Positions 3,240 to 28,245 of a stretch of 38,282 nt of DNA are shown here, in pieces. Each line of letters begins with the position of its first letter. Positions within the stretch are counted from its first letter, which is position 1. The stretch is taken from the IMG/VR virus record IMGVR_UViG_3300029660_000072, positions 1 through 38,282 of that record. The stretch is one strand, 5' to 3'. The position numbers were made by a program, and so were the translations under genes. The notes under the pieces were generated by a model, which did no database searches, was not told the DNA's origin, and worked only from the letters and a program-made list of their open reading frames with translations. The stretch comes from a virus.

Positions 3240-3760
3240 ATATAGTCGAACTGGCTTTAAGTGATATAAAGCCATATGAAAATAACCCTCGCTATAATGA
3301 TGAGGCTGCAACGTATGTTGCTGTAAGTATCGACCGTTTTGGGTTTAAAATTCCAATTATAGTTGATAAAGATTACGTTATCATTGCAGGGCATACTCGT
3401 TATAAGGCTGCACATATTTTGGGGCTTGTTACAGTTCCATGTATCATTGCAGATGATCTTGACGAAAAACAAGTAAAAGCATATCGAATTGCAGACAATC
3501 GCATGGCTGAGTTGAGTGAATGGAACTTTGACAAATACAATGAAGAAGTTCAAAAAATGCTTAATAGTGGCATGCTTGATGATATTGAACTATTCGACCT
3601 TTTCTGTAAAGAAGAAGACATCAGTCCGGATATGTTCGACTTGGGTGCGTTAGGTGTATATCGATTGACTATTGAAACCGATATCGATGAAGATATAGAG
3701 AAAATAAAAGAAATTGCATCTAAATATGAGGGCACGGAGGTCAAAGTAAATGGACATTAA
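3236..3760 (+). CDS. ParB/Srx-fold (ParB N-terminal nuclease-like) domain protein 1
   Basis: IKPYENNPRYND ... IIAGHTRYKAA ... RIADN motifs are typical of ParBc domains. Confidence 0.75.
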   Translation: MNIVELALSDIKPYENNPRYNDEAATYVAVSIDRFGFKIPIIVDKDYVIIAGHTRYKAAHILGLVTVPCIIADDLDEKQVKAYRIADNRMAELSEWNFDKYNEEVQKMLNSGMLDDIELFDLFCKEEDISPDMFDLGALGVYRLTIETDIDEDIEKIKEIASKYEGTEVKVNGH

Positions 3761-13897: not shown

Positions 13898-16800
13898 ATG
13901 GCCGATACTCAAATAAATGTCAAAATTGTTGGCTCGTCCAATAGTGCTGAACAGGCACTTGACCGTGTGGCAAAGAAAGCCGAGCAGTCGCTAGGTAAAA
14001 GCATCGAGGCTAGCCTTGATAATGTTAAGGCCAAGGCTCAAAAGGTCTTTGGGGTTGAAATTCCAGGGCTTATGAATGCAGCCAAAAGTGGTGCTGCATT
14101 TGCAGGTGCTGCGATTGGTATTGAGGCAGCCGGCAGAGCGTTAAAGGACATGGCCGTAAGTGCGATTAAAACCACCGACCAACTAACTCAATTACGTGCT
14201 CGTATCAACCTTATCAATGACGGTACGCAAAGTACTGCGGAAATTATGGATAAGGTATATCAAGCCGCTAACCGTTCTCGTGGTAGTTACCTCGATATGG
14301 CTGATAGTGTTGCGAAGTTGAATATGCTTGCAAAAGACGCTTTCAACTCTAATGATGAGGCTATCTATTTCGTAGAACAGTTAAATAAGCAATTTAAGAT
14401 TGCCGGTGCAAGCGTTGAAGAAACTTCATCCGCTATGTACCAGTTAACACAAGCGATGGCAGCCGGTAAGCTACAAGGCGACGAATTCCATTCCATTATG
14501 GAAAATGCTCCTATGTTAGCACAAGCGATTGCCAGTGAAATGGGCTTGACTGTAGGCCAATTAAAGGAAATGAGCTCGCAAGGGTTAATTACTGCGGACA
14601 TTATTAAGAACGCATTATTCAATAGTGCGGAAGAAACTAATGCAAAGTTCGCCGAAATTCCTTTGACATTCCAAGATATTGGCACTCAATTACAGAATGA
14701 TCTCATTACCGCATTTCAACCAGTAATGGAACAAATCGGCTCGATGGCAAGTTCTGATCTATTGGCAGGTGCACTCAACGAACTAGCTTTCTCATTCAAA
14801 GTAGTGGCTGCGGCTGCACAAGTTGCAATAGCTACTATCAAAGCTGCGTTTGCAGGGTTAAGCGTTACTATTGGTGTTATCAAGAACGTTGTAACAAGTT
14901 TTGTTGGAGTATTCACAACATCTATGCCAGCCGTTAGGGTTGCCGTTGTAGGTGTTACAACTGCTTTTATTGCCTATAAAGCCACTCTATTATTGTGTAG
15001 CACTCAAACTGCTGCACTTACTGTAAAAGTAATTGCATTAAAAGCTGCGGAATTAGCATCTGCAACTGCAACAAAGGCACATGCGGCAGCTATGGCAGTA
15101 TTAAGGGCTGCAATGGCGGCAGGTGCTACGGCATCCGCTTTACTTGCTGCGGCACTGGCTACAGTAAGGGGCATATATATTGGTGTTCGTAGTGGTGCAT
15201 TGGCTGCGGCTGCAGCTCAAAAAGTGCTTAATCTCGTAATGAGGGCGAACCCAGTCGGCTTACTAATTTCAGTACTTGTAACATTGATTACTGTATTTGC
15301 AACTGCGGCTGCGGCTGGCAATGGTTTTGGCAATACTCTAAGCTCGGTATTCTCGACTATCGTTCATACTGCCGTTTGGGGTGTAAATAAAATCATTGAG
15401 GCATTGAACTGGTTAATCGCTAAGCTCAATAGCGTAGGTGATAAAGTTGCCAAATTCTTTGGTGGTACATTTACTGCAATTCAACAAGTAGACACTATTT
15501 CGGCTGATACTGCACAAGATATTGTTAACACTGCCGGTGATATTATGGGCCAAATTACATCAGGTCTATCTGGTGGCGGTGGTGGAGACATTGACACAGG
15601 TGGTTTTGGTGGTGGCGGTGGCGACTACGACACTGGAGGCGGTAAAGGTGGCAAAGGTGGTTCCGGTGGTGGTAAAGGTAGCAAGGGCAGTGGTAAAGAT
15701 CTTGCGAAAGAGGCCAAACAAGTCCACGAAAAAATCTTGCAATCCTTCCTGGAAATGCAAGGCAACCAAGTTGAGTTAGTCGAACTTCAATATCAAAAGG
15801 AACGAGACGAGCTTGAAAAATCTAAGTCCGCCAATGCTAACTATCAAGAAGACTTGGAAAGACTTAACGAAGTTTATGCTGATAAGCGTATCAAGGCTAA
15901 GCAAGAAGAAATGGCAAAACTACGTGCCATTGAAACTGGCATTCGTGATATGCAGAAAAACTTTGCATTCAGTACTGCGGATAAAGACAGTACTGGCTCC
16001 GTATCTCCGGCAATGCAGTTGGCAAAAGATTATATCGACCATATCGATGAAATTGAGGACCGCTACGCAGAAATGTCCGACAACTTCATTAAAATGGACG
16101 CAATGGCTCAGCAAAAATATATTGATACTCTCAAGAAACGTGGCATCGAATTCGAAATGAGTGGCGAGGGGCAAATCTCATTTGAAAAAATGAAAAATGA
16201 AGAATTGCTAGCCCTACAAGAAGAGTATCGAAAGAAAGAGTTGCAACAGCATATTGATCTTGTGAATGAAAAAGCCAAAATCGATGAGGCTATGCGTACT
16301 CAGAACTTCGAGGCACTTCAAGCTGCATTGACAGATGAGTACATCGCCGAGCAACAGCATTATGACTTAAAAAAACAGCTCCTTGAAGAGTGGAAACAAG
16401 CCGTATTCGATGCAAATTGGAATGGGCAACAGGTTCTGTTCGATGCTGCAAATGCAGGGTTAGATAGCTTACAAGGTTCTATCTCAGGACTTATTCAAGG
16501 TACAACAACTCTTATGCAAACGTTCCAAAATCTTGGCAAAGCTATCCTCAAAACTATTGCTGATAGTGTAGCTCAATGGATAGCCGGTCAAATCAAGCAA
16601 GCCGTGTTCGGTAAAATGATGGCAGCACAACAGGCTGCAACTGGTACTGCTGCAGCTAACGCTCAATATCCGGCATGGGCTGCATTGGCTCAACAAGTTA
16701 GTATGGCGACCTTTGGTGCTAGTGCTATCGCCGGCAATGCTGCGTGGTCTGCTAATACTGCGGCCGGTAGTGCATTGTCCCTTGCTAATAGTGCAACGAG

Positions 16801-17119
16801 CTTTGCATCTATAGGTGGTGGTCGATTAGAATTGCCTAAGATGGCGAATGGCGGTGTTGCTTATGGCTCCACTTATGCTGAGATTGGCGAGGGTAAGTAT
16901 AAAGAGGCCGTTTTACCTCTAAGCGAAAGCACATACGATGAAATGGGTGCAGGTATAGCACGTGCCGGTGGTGGTGCTACAGGTGGTATTACGTTTAACG
17001 TATCCGCTATGGACGCTCATTCGTTTGGTGATTGGTTAGAGAATTCGGCAGGTCGTTCCTTACGGCAGTTTTTAGTTAATCAAAATAGGGAATTCGTAGC
17101 TACGGAGGGTACATGGTAA
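13898..17119 (+). CDS. Tape measure protein
   Basis: 1073 aa with N-terminal TMP-type helical repeats, a long Ala/Val-rich hydrophobic core, a Gly-rich linker and coiled coils. It follows the chaperone pair. Confidence 0.9.
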   Translation: MADTQINVKIVGSSNSAEQALDRVAKKAEQSLGKSIEASLDNVKAKAQKVFGVEIPGLMNAAKSGAAFAGAAIGIEAAGRALKDMAVSAIKTTDQLTQLRARINLINDGTQSTAEIMDKVYQAANRSRGSYLDMADSVAKLNMLAKDAFNSNDEAIYFVEQLNKQFKIAGASVEETSSAMYQLTQAMAAGKLQGDEFHSIMENAPMLAQAIASEMGLTVGQLKEMSSQGLITADIIKNALFNSAEETNAKFAEIPLTFQDIGTQLQNDLITAFQPVMEQIGSMASSDLLAGALNELAFSFKVVAAAAQVAIATIKAAFAGLSVTIGVIKNVVTSFVGVFTTSMPAVRVAVVGVTTAFIAYKATLLLCSTQTAALTVKVIALKAAELASATATKAHAAAMAVLRAAMAAGATASALLAAALATVRGIYIGVRSGALAAAAAQKVLNLVMRANPVGLLISVLVTLITVFATAAAAGNGFGNTLSSVFSTIVHTAVWGVNKIIEALNWLIAKLNSVGDKVAKFFGGTFTAIQQVDTISADTAQDIVNTAGDIMGQITSGLSGGGGGDIDTGGFGGGGGDYDTGGGKGGKGGSGGGKGSKGSGKDLAKEAKQVHEKILQSFLEMQGNQVELVELQYQKERDELEKSKSANANYQEDLERLNEVYADKRIKAKQEEMAKLRAIETGIRDMQKNFAFSTADKDSTGSVSPAMQLAKDYIDHIDEIEDRYAEMSDNFIKMDAMAQQKYIDTLKKRGIEFEMSGEGQISFEKMKNEELLALQEEYRKKELQQHIDLVNEKAKIDEAMRTQNFEALQAALTDEYIAEQQHYDLKKQLLEEWKQAVFDANWNGQQVLFDAANAGLDSLQGSISGLIQGTTTLMQTFQNLGKAILKTIADSVAQWIAGQIKQAVFGKMMAAQQAATGTAAANAQYPAWAALAQQVSMATFGASAIAGNAAWSANTAAGSALSLANSATSFASIGGGRLELPKMANGGVAYGSTYAEIGEGKYKEAVLPLSESTYDEMGAGIARAGGGATGGITFNVSAMDAHSFGDWLENSAGRSLRQFLVNQNREFVATEGTW

Positions 17120-24098: not shown

Positions 24099-24629
24099 AT
24101 GCAAGAAATAACAAATTTTCTATGCGACGCATGGCAAACACTTACTGAGTCATTCGCAATTAAGGCTTTATTGGCAGTAATAGCAGAAGTCGGTATTTAC
24201 ATGTTAGGTCTTAAACATGTACAAGTTTTAGGCATATTCATATTACTTGTCTTTTTAGATCTAATCACTAAATGGTCTGCCATTAGTTACCAAATGCTCA
24301 TAGATTTAGGTGCAAACCCAGACAATATCAGTGCGTCAGATAAGTATATCGCTATTCCTGCTGCATGGGGCAAAGGGCTTATTAATTCAAAACACATGCG
24401 AAAACCTTTTGTAACAAAGGTATTAACATATTGCCTAGCTACTGCCGGTGCATGGTGCTTTGATTTTATGGCAGGCAATTATGCGTTTGCAGTCAATTTA
24501 GTATGGCTCTATCTTGGCTCCGTCGAGTTCCTTTCTATATTGGAAAATATGCGAGACGGTGGCAATAGTACTATTTCAGGTCTATTGGAATTAGTACAAA
24601 GTAAGGTTGACGCATTATTAAAGAAATAA
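24099..24629 (+). CDS. Holin (TcdE / holin_4-like)
   Basis: Four hydrophobic segments and the SVEFLSILEN motif resembling E.iSI.EN of this holin family. It lies directly upstream of the endolysin. Confidence 0.7.
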   Translation: MQEITNFLCDAWQTLTESFAIKALLAVIAEVGIYMLGLKHVQVLGIFILLVFLDLITKWSAISYQMLIDLGANPDNISASDKYIAIPAAWGKGLINSKHMRKPFVTKVLTYCLATAGAWCFDFMAGNYAFAVNLVWLYLGSVEFLSILENMRDGGNSTISGLLELVQSKVDALLKK

Positions 24630-24639
24630 CGTTTTATAT

Positions 24640-24666
24640 GAGGGCTGCATATAGTAGCCCTCTTTT
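24640..24666 (+). terminator. Hairpin plus T-tract between holin and endolysin
   Basis: GAGGGCTGC / GTAGCCCTC stem with a 5-nt loop, then TTTT. Confidence 0.5.
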
Positions 24667-24687: not shown

Positions 24688-25077
24688 ATGAAAATTGGTG
24701 CATATTTTGATGATTTTGAGTTCGCTTGCAGTTGCCATAGACATGAAGTCGATGAGAATGGACATAATAAACTGGACCATATCATCGACAAACGTTTGGT
24801 AGACTTATTAGACGCAATTCGTGAACGTTTAGGGGTTCCGTTATATATCAATAGTGGTTACCGTTGCCCTGAACATAATGCGGAAGTAGGGGGCGTGTCT
24901 AACTCTCAACATTTAGAGGGCACAGCCGCCGACATTACATACGATGGCATTGATGTTGACTATCTTGCACAAATTGCCGAAGAATGTGGTGCGGACGGAA
25001 TTGGTTGCTATTATCACCAAGACTTCGTGCATGTTGATGTTAGGGGATACGCAGCACGTTGGAATGATCTTGACTAA
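24688..25077 (+). CDS. Endolysin, peptidase M15 (zinc D-Ala-D-Ala carboxypeptidase-like)
   Basis: SGYRCPEHN...SQH..GTAADI...FVHVDVR carries the H-D-H zinc ligands. ATG at 24688 follows AAAGAGGTG. Confidence 0.8.
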   Translation: MKIGAYFDDFEFACSCHRHEVDENGHNKLDHIIDKRLVDLLDAIRERLGVPLYINSGYRCPEHNAEVGGVSNSQHLEGTAADITYDGIDVDYLAQIAEECGADGIGCYYHQDFVHVDVRGYAARWNDLD

Positions 25078-25093
25078 ATAAAGGGGGCTATGT

Positions 25094-25540
25094 ATGTATG
25101 AGAAAATCACGAAGTACATCAAAGCAGTTAAATCTCAAATTACTGTTAAGCGGTTTATTCTTATTTGTGGTTGTGTGTTGCTCCTCATTGGTGCATGCCA
25201 ACTCATTGACGGCTACTTCACCGCAAGAGGAAACTATCAACGTGCCATTGACAAGTTGGAACGAACTCAAAGGGAACTTGATACAAGCAGACGCCTTAAT
25301 CAAGAGCTCAAACTTGTCATTGAACGAAGCTCAGACCTTAACCGTCAAGCAGGCGACCGAATTGAACGAATTGAAGATTATCAACGAAGAACGGAGCAAG
25401 GAATTGGCCGAGCTCAAAACTATCAACAAGAAACAGGAAAAAGAGTTAGCGAAAGCATCGGAACTAACAGCCAAGCAAGCGAACTCATTGGACGCAGCTT
25501 ACGCATCATCGAACGAGTTGAAAGCGGAAATAAAGAATAA
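25094..25540 (+). CDS. i-spanin-like ORF (N-terminal TM segment plus charged coiled-coil-like region); coding status uncertain
   Basis: 148 codons open; ATG 6 nt after GGGGG. A TM-like FILICGCVLLLIGAC segment is present. It overlaps 25098..25631 completely in another frame. Confidence 0.4.
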   Translation: MYEKITKYIKAVKSQITVKRFILICGCVLLLIGACQLIDGYFTARGNYQRAIDKLERTQRELDTSRRLNQELKLVIERSSDLNRQAGDRIERIEDYQRRTEQGIGRAQNYQQETGKRVSESIGTNSQASELIGRSLRIIERVESGNKE

Positions 25541-25631
25541 TAAACGAACAGAACAAAGGTTACGCCGGCAACGTGATACATGGGCAATTAGTAATGCTGC
25601 ATTATTCCTTGCAGGTGTGTTGCGTAGATAG
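25098..25631 (+). CDS. Unimolecular-spanin-like ORF (N-terminal signal/lipobox-like segment, coiled coil, C-terminal hydrophobic anchor)
   Basis: 177 codons with a basic n-region, LLLSGLFLFVVVCC, heptad-like ELNELK/KELAELK repeats and a C-terminal AISNAALFLAGVLRR. Codon pattern looks natural, especially in the second half. Confidence 0.55.
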   Translation: MRKSRSTSKQLNLKLLLSGLFLFVVVCCSSLVHANSLTATSPQEETINVPLTSWNELKGNLIQADALIKSSNLSLNEAQTLTVKQATELNELKIINEERSKELAELKTINKKQEKELAKASELTAKQANSLDAAYASSNELKAEIKNNKRTEQRLRRQRDTWAISNAALFLAGVLRR

Positions 25632-25700: not shown

Positions 25701-25740
25701 AGGGCACTTACTTTAACAGTAGGTGCCCTTATTTTTTTTT
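25701..25740 (+). terminator. Strong rho-independent terminator ending the late/lysis operon
   Basis: 12-bp stem AGGGCACTTACT / AGTAGGTGCCCT followed by a run of nine T. Confidence 0.85.
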
Positions 25741-25761: not shown

Positions 25762-25790
25762 TTGACTTTAACAAGAATAAGTTATATAAT
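25762..25790 (+). promoter_or_regulatory. Near-consensus sigma70-type promoter TTGACT-17-TATAAT for the moron cassette
   Basis: Hexamers and 17-nt spacer counted in the sequence; 45 nt upstream of ATG 25835. Confidence 0.6.
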
Positions 25791-27152: not shown

Positions 27153-28205
27153 CTATCCAAATATGCTTGCTATGTGGTTCGTTGCTTGCTTTCTCATATC
27201 GTCTGAATAGTGAATATACGTAGTCATAACCGTATTGAGTTTGTCGCCCAATAAACTGGCTACAGTTTGAATGTCTACACCATTGGCGAGTAGGGTTGTC
27301 GCATATGTATGGCGGAAAGAATGTATCGACTTATCCGGTAAATAACGTTGTATCACTCTATTAAGTGGCGAGCTGCGATTGGTCTTAAATGGGAATAGCC
27401 TTTCATTACCTTTGCCAATATGCCATAATAGTTCGTCAGCTAATATCTCAGGTATAGGAATAGTACGAATACTGTTACGGCTTTTAGGTTGACTAAACCC
27501 ATACCCAGCATTACCGAGCCATGTCCATTGTTTTGATATGGATATAGTATTATTAACTAAATCTATATCGTCCCATGTAAGTGCTAAAATTTCACCATAT
27601 CTTGCCCCTGTATAGCGTGCTATGCTGCATAAGAGATAATATAAGGGGTGCTTACGTTTAATGGCATACAGGAGCAAATTCATGTCATTTTGGCTAATTG
27701 TAGACGGTGAGTTATTAGCCTTTGACTTGAAACGTCTAATTGCTGCACATGGGCTATGGCTAATTATCCGATAAGGAGTGATAGCATAGTTAAATATTGA
27801 TTTTAAAAGTACCAAGCACAGGTTTTTGCTTGCAGATGATCTAGGCAGTTCGTTTAGTAGCTGCATTATATCTTGATGAGTTATATCGCTTATAGCTTTA
27901 TTAAGTAGCGACTGACAATAACTATTTATAATGGTGCTATATGTTCTGCGTGTGTTTTCTGTTATATTGGCTTTCTCGTTAATGTATATATTATAAAAGT
28001 GCAAGAATGTTATATCGCTTTTACTACTATCAATGGTTATTATGGTACTTTTTAATTTATCTACTATTTTAAGTCCGTACATCTTGGCATCTCGTTTAGT
28101 GTCAAAGCCTTGTTTTGACTTTTGACGCCATTTTCGTCCATCTTTAAACGATATAATAACTTGATAACCCTTATTTTTTCTGCGTATTGTCATATTGTAT
28201 TGCAT
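27153..28205 (-). CDS. int: Tyrosine recombinase (phage integrase)
   Basis: The C-terminal catalytic region has ARYTGARYGEIL (Arg), HSFRHTYAT (H-x-x-R) and TTYIHYS (Tyr). The start is chosen at the ATG with GGAG 5 nt upstream; the ORF is open to 28220. Confidence 0.9.
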   Translation of the reverse strand: MQYNMTIRRKNKGYQVIISFKDGRKWRQKSKQGFDTKRDAKMYGLKIVDKLKSTIITIDSSKSDITFLHFYNIYINEKANITENTRRTYSTIINSYCQSLLNKAISDITHQDIMQLLNELPRSSASKNLCLVLLKSIFNYAITPYRIISHSPCAAIRRFKSKANNSPSTISQNDMNLLLYAIKRKHPLYYLLCSIARYTGARYGEILALTWDDIDLVNNTISISKQWTWLGNAGYGFSQPKSRNSIRTIPIPEILADELLWHIGKGNERLFPFKTNRSSPLNRVIQRYLPDKSIHSFRHTYATTLLANGVDIQTVASLLGDKLNTVMTTYIHYSDDMRKQATNHIASIFG

Positions 28206-28245
28206 AGTATCTCCGTTCATATGTTCGTCATAATAGTTATAAATT

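Follow-up and report, generated by a model that had tools for sequence, protein, structure and literature searches.

A probable dual-coding gene pair for two predicted membrane-anchored coiled-coil proteins behind the endolysin gene of phages of Veillonella and its relatives

The closest described counterparts of the locus treated here are the two-component spanins, such as Rz/Rz1 of phage lambda with its embedded genes and LysB/LysC of P2 with its overlapped genes, in which the frame of the second gene is +1 relative to that of the first gene, the pair comes last in a holin-endolysin cassette and the host is diderm (PMC6139136). The first gene encodes an inner-membrane protein of type II whose periplasmic domain is helical and rich in heptads, and most two-component spanins have a periplasmic cysteine (PMC6139136). 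Both o-spanins and the single-chain u-spanins are defined by an outer-membrane (OM) lipoprotein signal (PMC6139136). Here we describe two overlapping open reading frames (ORFs), A and B, that resemble these systems in the +1 relation, the position in the cassette, the type of host and the predicted layout of the first product. They lie in the IMG/VR record IMGVR_UViG_3300029660_000072 (38,282 nt, 39% G+C); this whole stretch is called the window and supplies all coordinates, apart from those given with a locus label (L numbers; P numbers label proteins). A and B start 4 nt apart and overlap over 443 nt in the window. An initial annotation, made from the letters of the window alone, had proposed a spanin-like lysis locus at this site, and its coordinates, the GGGGG element, the three ATGs, the frame from 25090 that closes after 3 codons and the +1 relation were all found as described on direct reading.

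Judged by the comparison of related loci, it is almost certain that positions 25094-25631 are a true dual-coding pair. Close relatives were represented by 52 IMG/VR loci with 98-61% identity in A, and openness was scored in the complete loci. Both frames are open in every one of these, with A coding for 145-152 and B for 174-179 amino acids and with an invariant ATGTATG; the ATG of A is invariant in 52/52 close loci. Two loci from Veillonella genomes, L053 and L054, in which B is 54% and 48% identical, also have both frames open. At a larger distance, an A-frame ORF of 133 or 161-163 amino acids is present in about 128 of the 132 IMG/VR loci of the P0253 clade (~40% identity), the ATG of A lying 4 nt ahead of that of B in 110 loci and 7 nt ahead in 16. 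A co-extensive A-frame ORF was likewise found in 8/8 further loci at 30-50% identity (123-167 amino acids, overlap 368-474 nt), where the start offset is -4 (ATGNATG), +2 (ATGTG, with a GTG start) or -40. Homologues with one interrupted frame had been named beforehand as refuting evidence, and the about 190 loci checked do not refute the dual-frame reading. The triple ATG of ATGTATGTATG, on the other hand, which the initial annotation had treated as a feature of the locus, is not conserved: only ATGTATG with its two productive starts is kept among close relatives, and the first ATG (25090) is swapped for ATA, AGA, GTG and others in most of them.

The early claim that such double openness exceeds what the usual closure of alternative frames would allow is borne out by both simulation nulls that we applied. 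With the B protein fixed and synonymous codons drawn from the codon usage of the phage, 17.5 frame-A stops are expected, and the reverse test with A fixed gives 12.8 frame-B stops; zero stops occurred in 0/20,000 trials of each test (chance <5e-5 each). A stricter null, which permutes the gene's own synonymous codons, still yields 6-8 frame-A stops, with zero stops in fewer than 1/3000 permutations per close locus. Applied to ten deeply diverged loci, this null leaves an open frame A a chance of ≤0.03 in every one and of <0.006 in most. Inside the long genes of the window, alternative sense frames have a mean open run of 7-16 codons, the longest being 126. This 126-codon run, in the +1 frame within the gene at 13898..17119, was considered as a gene and rejected, as it has no gene-like features. 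Counted over the overlap in 53 loci, A and B have no stop in any locus, against a mean of 15.8 in the third sense frame and of 11.6 and 17.9 in two antisense frames. The remaining antisense frame, which is aligned with the codons of A, has a mean of 1.4 stops and is fully open in 4% of the loci; it is stop-poor because A avoids xTA codons. A caveat in the initial annotation, that open antisense frames might betray a stop-poor local composition, holds for this one frame and fails as a general statement, as the other three non-coding frames contain 12-18 stops.

Frame-specific constraint at synonymous sites, which had been suggested as a point to compare among homologues, was found in both frames. 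At wobble sites of B where a T would be synonymous in B and would create TAA, TAG or TGA in frame A, the close loci never use it (0/1515), against 714/2785 (26%) at harmless equivalent sites and 234/328 (71%) in the risky context past the stop of A. The same avoidance is seen again in the P0253 clade (0/2552 versus 1703/6557 at harmless sites), which brings the stop-creating T to 0/4067 in both clades together. In the reverse direction, Leu, Val and Ile codons of A that end in TA or TG never precede the base that would stop B (A or G; 0/~1490), and such codons are used elsewhere. In the B-only tail, nucleotide diversity is 0.293 at the third codon position of B (B3) versus 0.089 at the first and 0.086 at the second, which is an ordinary coding signature; B is therefore translated. 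Within the overlap, diversity drops to 0.147 at B3 and 0.106 at the third position of A (A3), a 2.5- to 3.5-fold suppression, and the endolysin gene of the same loci has normal values of 0.112/0.063/0.387 over its three codon phases. The nucleotide identity of the overlap (0.89) is higher than the protein identities (0.82 and 0.83), which is the reverse of the usual order and typical of dual coding. Even in 53 deep pairs with <45% identity in B, the identity of A at B-aligned columns is 0.247 versus 0.142±0.006 (maximum 0.162) under a null that keeps the B protein, randomises synonymous sites and forbids frame-A stops; this corresponds to a distance of ~17 standard deviations (SD). Besides, third bases that are synonymous in B agree in 57.6% of cases within the overlap versus 39.5% within the tail. 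These patterns indicate that each frame encodes a protein kept by purifying selection, B being the more constrained one.

The B family is small and uniform. When 1.8 billion representatives were scanned in full with B by HMMER, only 31 clusters at 50% identity were returned, and full-length members at 30-50% identity share one architecture: signal peptide, TIxVPLxxWNELK, heptad helix, RLxRQR(D/N)xW and a C-terminal anchor ending in K/R. At 90% identity, the choice of gene callers was frame A for 1423 clusters and frame B for 550, and both were called at one locus in no family record examined; therefore, one protein is missing from each genome record in which the callers picked A or B. The names in the sources are "hypothetical protein" and, in a few cases, "lipoprotein" for A and "septal ring factor EnvC" or "chromosome segregation ATPase" for B, of which the EnvC and ATPase names are coiled-coil artefacts. 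No database name or family describes the pair, and PHROGs has A alone, with "unknown function". In Pfam, NCBIfam and PADLOC, A and B matched nothing beyond coiled-coil noise below threshold, and profile searches of the PDB gave only a compositional match to ATP synthase subunit b (E=0.01). Foldseek found no match for the AlphaFold2 (AF2) models of A and B in BFVD, as expected for single helices, and blastn/tblastn with the region and both proteins found none in INPHARED.

Protein A has a basic N-terminal part (residues 1-20), a hydrophobic segment of 18 residues and one long heptad helix that extends to about residue 144, with a hydrophobic periodicity of 3.5 residues; the AF2 model is one helix over residues 2-144 with a predicted local distance difference test (pLDDT) score of 86. 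The transmembrane (TM) segment and its basic N-terminus are present in all clades, with no signal-peptidase site. Following the positive-inside rule, there are strong grounds to predict A as a type II (N-in/C-out) inner-membrane protein, and equally strong ones, from the model, to predict its periplasmic part as a helical heptad rod of about 105 residues. The i-spanin topology first proposed for A is supported by this combination of an N-terminal TM segment and a helical periplasmic domain. Among the described i-spanin families, Pfam, PHROGs and NCBIfam gave no spanin match for A, the only hit being phrog_18860. In the clade of the window the TM segment ends in a lipobox-like LIGA↓C35, which makes A the sole ORF with a canonical lipobox in all six frames of the window. 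This lipobox is broken in L022 and L040/42/46 and absent in L050/51, L053, L054 and every distant clade, with the rest of A conserved. As no other ORF of the window has a canonical lipobox, we also weighed a reversed arrangement in which A would be a lipoprotein of the o-spanin type and B the i-spanin. It was rejected as a general model: close relatives have lost the lipobox even though the periplasmic domain is otherwise ~95% identical, and so have all other clades. Two forms of A exist in the P0253 clade, a short one of 133 and a long one of 161-163 amino acids (L077, L081, L083 etc. versus L055-L076; locus positions ~3400-3482). The long form reads to just past the stop of B, and this adds a tail rich in Ser, Gly, Thr and Asp.

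Protein B is ordered as a signal peptide (residues 1-34), a disordered linker (37-50), the motif TIxVPLxxWNxLK, a heptad helix of ~125 residues, the basic motif RTEQRLRRQRDTW, the anchor and a final RR. Its AF2 model is a helix over residues 51-176 with pLDDT >90, and the invariant residues of B sit at heptad a/d positions. For the N-terminus, the initial annotation had left open a non-canonical lipobox or a signal-peptidase site at VHA/N, and only the latter can be maintained. A (-3,-1) signal-peptidase-I site is retained in 12/13 diverse homologues via compensating changes (VHA, SFA, SLA, ALA, SYA, VFA, VRA, TSA, VGA). Cys28, by comparison, is invariant in the close clade, where it stands within VVCC/LAFC (-1 = C or F) and forms no canonical lipobox of the type [LVI][ASTVI][GAS]C; in the distant P0253, P0269 and P0271 it is absent, and an AXA-type site 5-6 residues downstream is conserved. 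Since the lipobox of A is lost in relatives and the cysteine of B is not kept either, neither protein is an obligate lipoprotein. At the other end, all 31 clusters reaching the C-terminus have the anchor, a hydrophobic stretch of 14-19 residues followed by K/R, of which at least three versions with unrelated sequences exist. From this recurrence we regard the predicted anchor as real, though it is short in the window. Thus far, the export signal, the coiled coil and the C-terminal hydrophobic anchor that had first been read into B are supported, the anchor by hydrophobicity that is conserved over its different versions; the likeness to a u-spanin such as T1 gp11 is not supported, as a canonical lipobox is missing and the cysteine is not conserved. 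Sequence and model together argue strongly for B as a predicted type I (N-out, C-in) inner-membrane protein that would lose its Sec signal peptide by cleavage and be held by an anchor at the C-terminus. They argue as strongly for a periplasmic rod of about 125 residues, whose far end would carry the conserved motif of the free N-terminus.

The dominant hydrophobic period of A is found in B too, and the heptad cores of the two proteins coincide on the DNA (Fisher p=8e-5). An xTT codon for Ile, Leu or Val in A, when followed by a purine, is read as TTG or TTA for Leu in B. The long overlap is workable because this rule lets both proteins share their heptad cores, and it provides a simple code-level account of how two coiled coils share DNA. 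In this context, the clade of the window differs from all other clades by a 14-residue (two-heptad) insertion in both frames (window ~25380-25421), which comprises residues ~92-105 of B, LKIINEERSKELAE, and ~97-110 of A, RRTEQGIGRAQNYQ. As the insertion is visible in both frames, a single 42-nt indel lengthened both rods equally.

The features of the locus are collected in Table 1. The M15 endolysin has neither a signal nor a signal-arrest-release (SAR) segment; its stop codon lies at 25075-25077, and A starts 16 nt past it. In relatives, an element that is G-rich or reads AGGAGG is as far from the starts as in the window, and we infer that the single GGGGG feeds both A and B. Between the stop of the holin gene and the start of the endolysin gene there is a terminator-like hairpin (24640-24662, 9-bp stem with 6 GC pairs, then TTTTAATTTG), which may act as an attenuator of read-through within the lysis cassette or as a processing site. 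A near-consensus sigma-70-type promoter (TTGACT-17-TATAAT, 25762-25790) heads the module 3' of the operon terminator, and the sole long minus-strand ORF nearby (27153..28220, minus strand, 355 amino acids) is an ordinary gene.

Table 1. Coordinates of the A/B pair, its sub-features and the surrounding lysis cassette in the window
Feature	Position	Strand	Description and evidence
Holin gene	24099..24629	+	Opens the lysis cassette; PF05105 Phage_holin_4_1, E=2.3e-5, above gathering score; phrog_199 holin
Endolysin, Peptidase_M15_3	24688..25077	+	PF08291, E=1.5e-26; phrog_894 endolysin, E=8e-43
Shine-Dalgarno-like GGGGG	25083..25087	+	Spacer 6 nt to ATG of ORF A, 10 nt to ATG of ORF B; read directly
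ATGTATGTATG, three-frame ATG motif	25090-25100	+	ATGs at 25090, 25094 and 25098
ORF A	25094..25540	+	148 amino acids; phrog_18860, E=4.5e-36
ORF B	25098..25631	+	177 amino acids; +1 relative to A
Predicted signal peptide of B	25098..25199	+	n-region MRKSRSTSKQLNLK, h-region, site LVHA↓NS; hydropathy
Predicted TM segment of A, F21-I38	25154..25207	+	Hydropathy
B-only tail past the stop of A	25541..25631	+	Basic juxtamembrane motif K149-D160, anchor W162-L175, RR, stop codon
Intrinsic terminator ending the late/lysis operon	25701..25739	+	Stem-loop 25701-25729 (12-bp stem, 6 GC pairs), then T-run

At every locus, the A/B pair lies directly 3' of an endolysin gene, and these endolysins belong to three unrelated families: Peptidase_M15_3 in the window, L193 and L194, Glyco_hydro_25 in L190, L191 and L197, and Amidase_3 in L081, L196 and L198. 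In L081 the stop of the endolysin even overlaps the ATG of A as TAATG. One distant clade has an extra gene of 103 codons between the M15 endolysin and A/B (L194:2569-2880, L195:538-849), which overlaps the start of B by 4 nt. Its product has an N-terminal TM segment, a coiled coil and a weak DivIC-like Pfam match (E=0.004), and we take it as a candidate third i-spanin-like component of the L194/L195 lineage. Integrated copies show host genes within about 300-750 nt past A/B, namely an ORF for a TrmK-like methyltransferase, named by eye from sequence (L054:4922-5686), and an OEP/TolC efflux operon after a small minus-strand HTH_3 ORF (L193:5263-8510); therefore, the lysis cassette stands at one prophage end. 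In the window, small phage genes follow the cassette, and hence the window probably represents a free phage genome or a circularly permuted one.

The named sources of the family are Veillonella parvula, V. dispar and Veillonella sp., and a further host seems to be a genus related to Veillonella, as its Ppx/GppA is only about 52% identical to that of named Veillonella. With Veillonella and its relatives, the host is diderm, as the first reading of the locus had presupposed. Negativicutes are diderm and lack LolA/LolB (PMC5007114), and no lipid-modified OM proteins were detected in V. parvula (PMC5491611). Therefore, a classical o-spanin may be undeliverable in this host. Nothing relevant on spanins of Veillonella or of diderm Firmicutes turned up in our literature search.

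From its genomic context, the A/B pair very likely has some role related to lysis. With clearly more reserve, we lean towards a role in OM disruption, as an equivalent of spanins that is independent of lipoproteins. In the mechanism we propose, A and B would be made together late from starts fed by one Shine-Dalgarno, co-transcribed with holin and endolysin. A would insert with its N-terminus inside, and B would be exported, cleaved and retained by its C-terminal anchor, so that the two rods would reach across the periplasm, with a length of about 16 nm for A and about 19 nm for B if they are helical throughout. Once the endolysin has removed the wall, A and B would disrupt the OM with no need for an OM lipoprotein, which would fit a host lineage without Lol. 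If A and B form a coiled coil with each other, it would be antiparallel with both anchors in the inner membrane, which is speculation at this point. Only tentatively do we go one step further and suggest that the pair could be a lipoprotein-free two-gene spanin of Lol-less diderm Firmicutes and as such a third solution to the OM step, namely a periplasm-spanning rod whose tip, made up of TIxVPLxxWNxLK of B and the C-terminus of A, attacks or fuses with the OM. In its predicted layout, B is similar to a class I viral fusion protein: the signal is cleaved off, the tip lies at the N-terminus, and a long heptad helix leads to an anchor at the C-terminus.

Several observations speak against a dual-coding pair that acts on the OM. 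The phase in which B3 meets the first position of A (B3/A1) remains the most variable one, A being less constrained than B, and the C-terminal extension of the long form of A may be neutral, given that codon-phase diversity there resembles constraint on B only. In the window, the anchor of B has only 14 hydrophobic residues. Both predicted anchors are inner-membrane anchors with no OM targeting signal evident, and a spanin-like bridge stays putative. Neither mature protein has a periplasmic cysteine, which excludes disulfide links, and no homology of A or B to characterised spanins, Pfam, NCBIfam, PADLOC, PDB or BFVD entries was found. One might ask if only one frame is functional, with composition or chance keeping the other open. 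A is the choice of gene callers and PHROGs while codon periodicity prefers B, one antisense frame is stop-poor too, permuted synonymous codons of A give merely 1-3 frame-B stops (P0 up to 0.26) and the variability of B3 is as just mentioned. Nevertheless, we hold this explanation to be very improbable: tail periodicity and the conserved anchor make B certainly coding, and A is open given B against all permutation chances reported above, keeps its ATG, is spared every stop-creating T and is far more conserved than the B-only null predicts, whereas the stop-poor antisense frame is interrupted in 96% of the loci. Slimmer still is the chance that programmed ribosomal frameshifting joins A and B into fusions, for instance the N-terminus of A to the body of B. 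Frame-switching chimeric ORFs do exist in databases (P0243, P0257, P0260, P0261, P0263, P0270, P0271), but each of the seven is a singleton cluster that comes from one or two short contigs, their switch points differ, no conserved slippery site was noticed, and both starts and both full-length ORFs are conserved. The chimeric ORFs are probably indels or assembly errors, which inflate the diversity of the family at 50% clustering.

If a dual-coding pair is accepted, its function can be read in other ways. A and B could be real and yet not disrupt the OM, serving as antiholin-like regulators of lysis timing, as accessories of holin or endolysin, or as a superinfection-exclusion or conversion pair (moron). 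The inner-membrane anchors with no OM signal and the lacking homology to spanins suit this view, as does the L054 locus at a prophage end beside host genes, which is a frequent position of morons. We think it unlikely, though worth serious attention, as the pair has no separate promoter and starts 16 nt past the endolysin stop or overlaps it, is strictly adjacent to endolysins of three families, and encodes rods of 16-19 nm that suit a span of the periplasm and exceed the need of a regulator; moreover, there is no other candidate for the OM step in the phage. A canonical spanin, with A as i-spanin and B either as a +1-frame o-spanin in an extreme overlapped or embedded arrangement or as a u-spanin like T1 gp11, would account for the +1 relation, the post-endolysin position, the TM and helical domain of A and the export signal and C-terminal TM of B. 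This is improbable, since B has no canonical lipobox, loses its cysteine in distant homologues and conserves a signal-peptidase-I site instead, and since its 125-residue helix is neither short and Pro-rich nor beta-rich; the host lineage is without Lol, and the only lipobox, that of A, is dispensable. A lipoprotein-independent action on the OM thus remains the reading that we prefer.

Compared with the described systems, T1 gp11 likewise combines an N-terminal export signal with a C-terminal TM segment on one chain, but it requires an OM lipoprotein signal and is beta-rich (PMC6139136). B, in contrast, is predicted as a single long alpha-helix behind a signal-peptidase-I site and always comes with its partner A. 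Lambda S105/S107 are near-identical holin and antiholin membrane proteins made from two in-frame starts a few nt apart behind one ribosome-binding region; the close dual start is shared with A/B, whose starts are in different frames and give unrelated products. Long same-strand overlaps with two functional proteins and reduced synonymous variation are also known from A/B, D/E and K of phiX174. The pair described here is like them in its dual frames and differs in that both products are predicted membrane-anchored coiled coils, encoded by a tailed phage of ~38 kb without an extreme size constraint. With ~440 nt kept from >95% to about 30% protein identity, it ranks among the longest same-strand overlaps of tailed phages and among the best supported ones. 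A lysis step at the OM that is independent of lipoproteins is known for the disruptin gp28 of phiKT, a small cationic amphipathic peptide without TM anchor that is encoded in the lysis cassette; the proposed action of A/B would be similar in this independence, but A and B differ as anchored rods. How phages breach the OM of Negativicutes, without Lol and probably without OM lipoproteins, becomes a testable question with this defined gene pair. In Rz/Rz1 and LysB/LysC the second product is a short OM lipoprotein, whereas B is a coiled-coil protein of 177 amino acids with a predicted signal peptide and anchor; the overlap of A and B is near-complete over the family, with starts 2-4 nt apart, no periplasmic cysteine and no sequence similarity to either spanin pair. 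What is new in comparison to the known +1 overlapped or embedded spanin pairs is therefore the nature of the second partner, the near-complete overlap with near-coincident starts, the co-encoded coiled coils and the envelope of the host.

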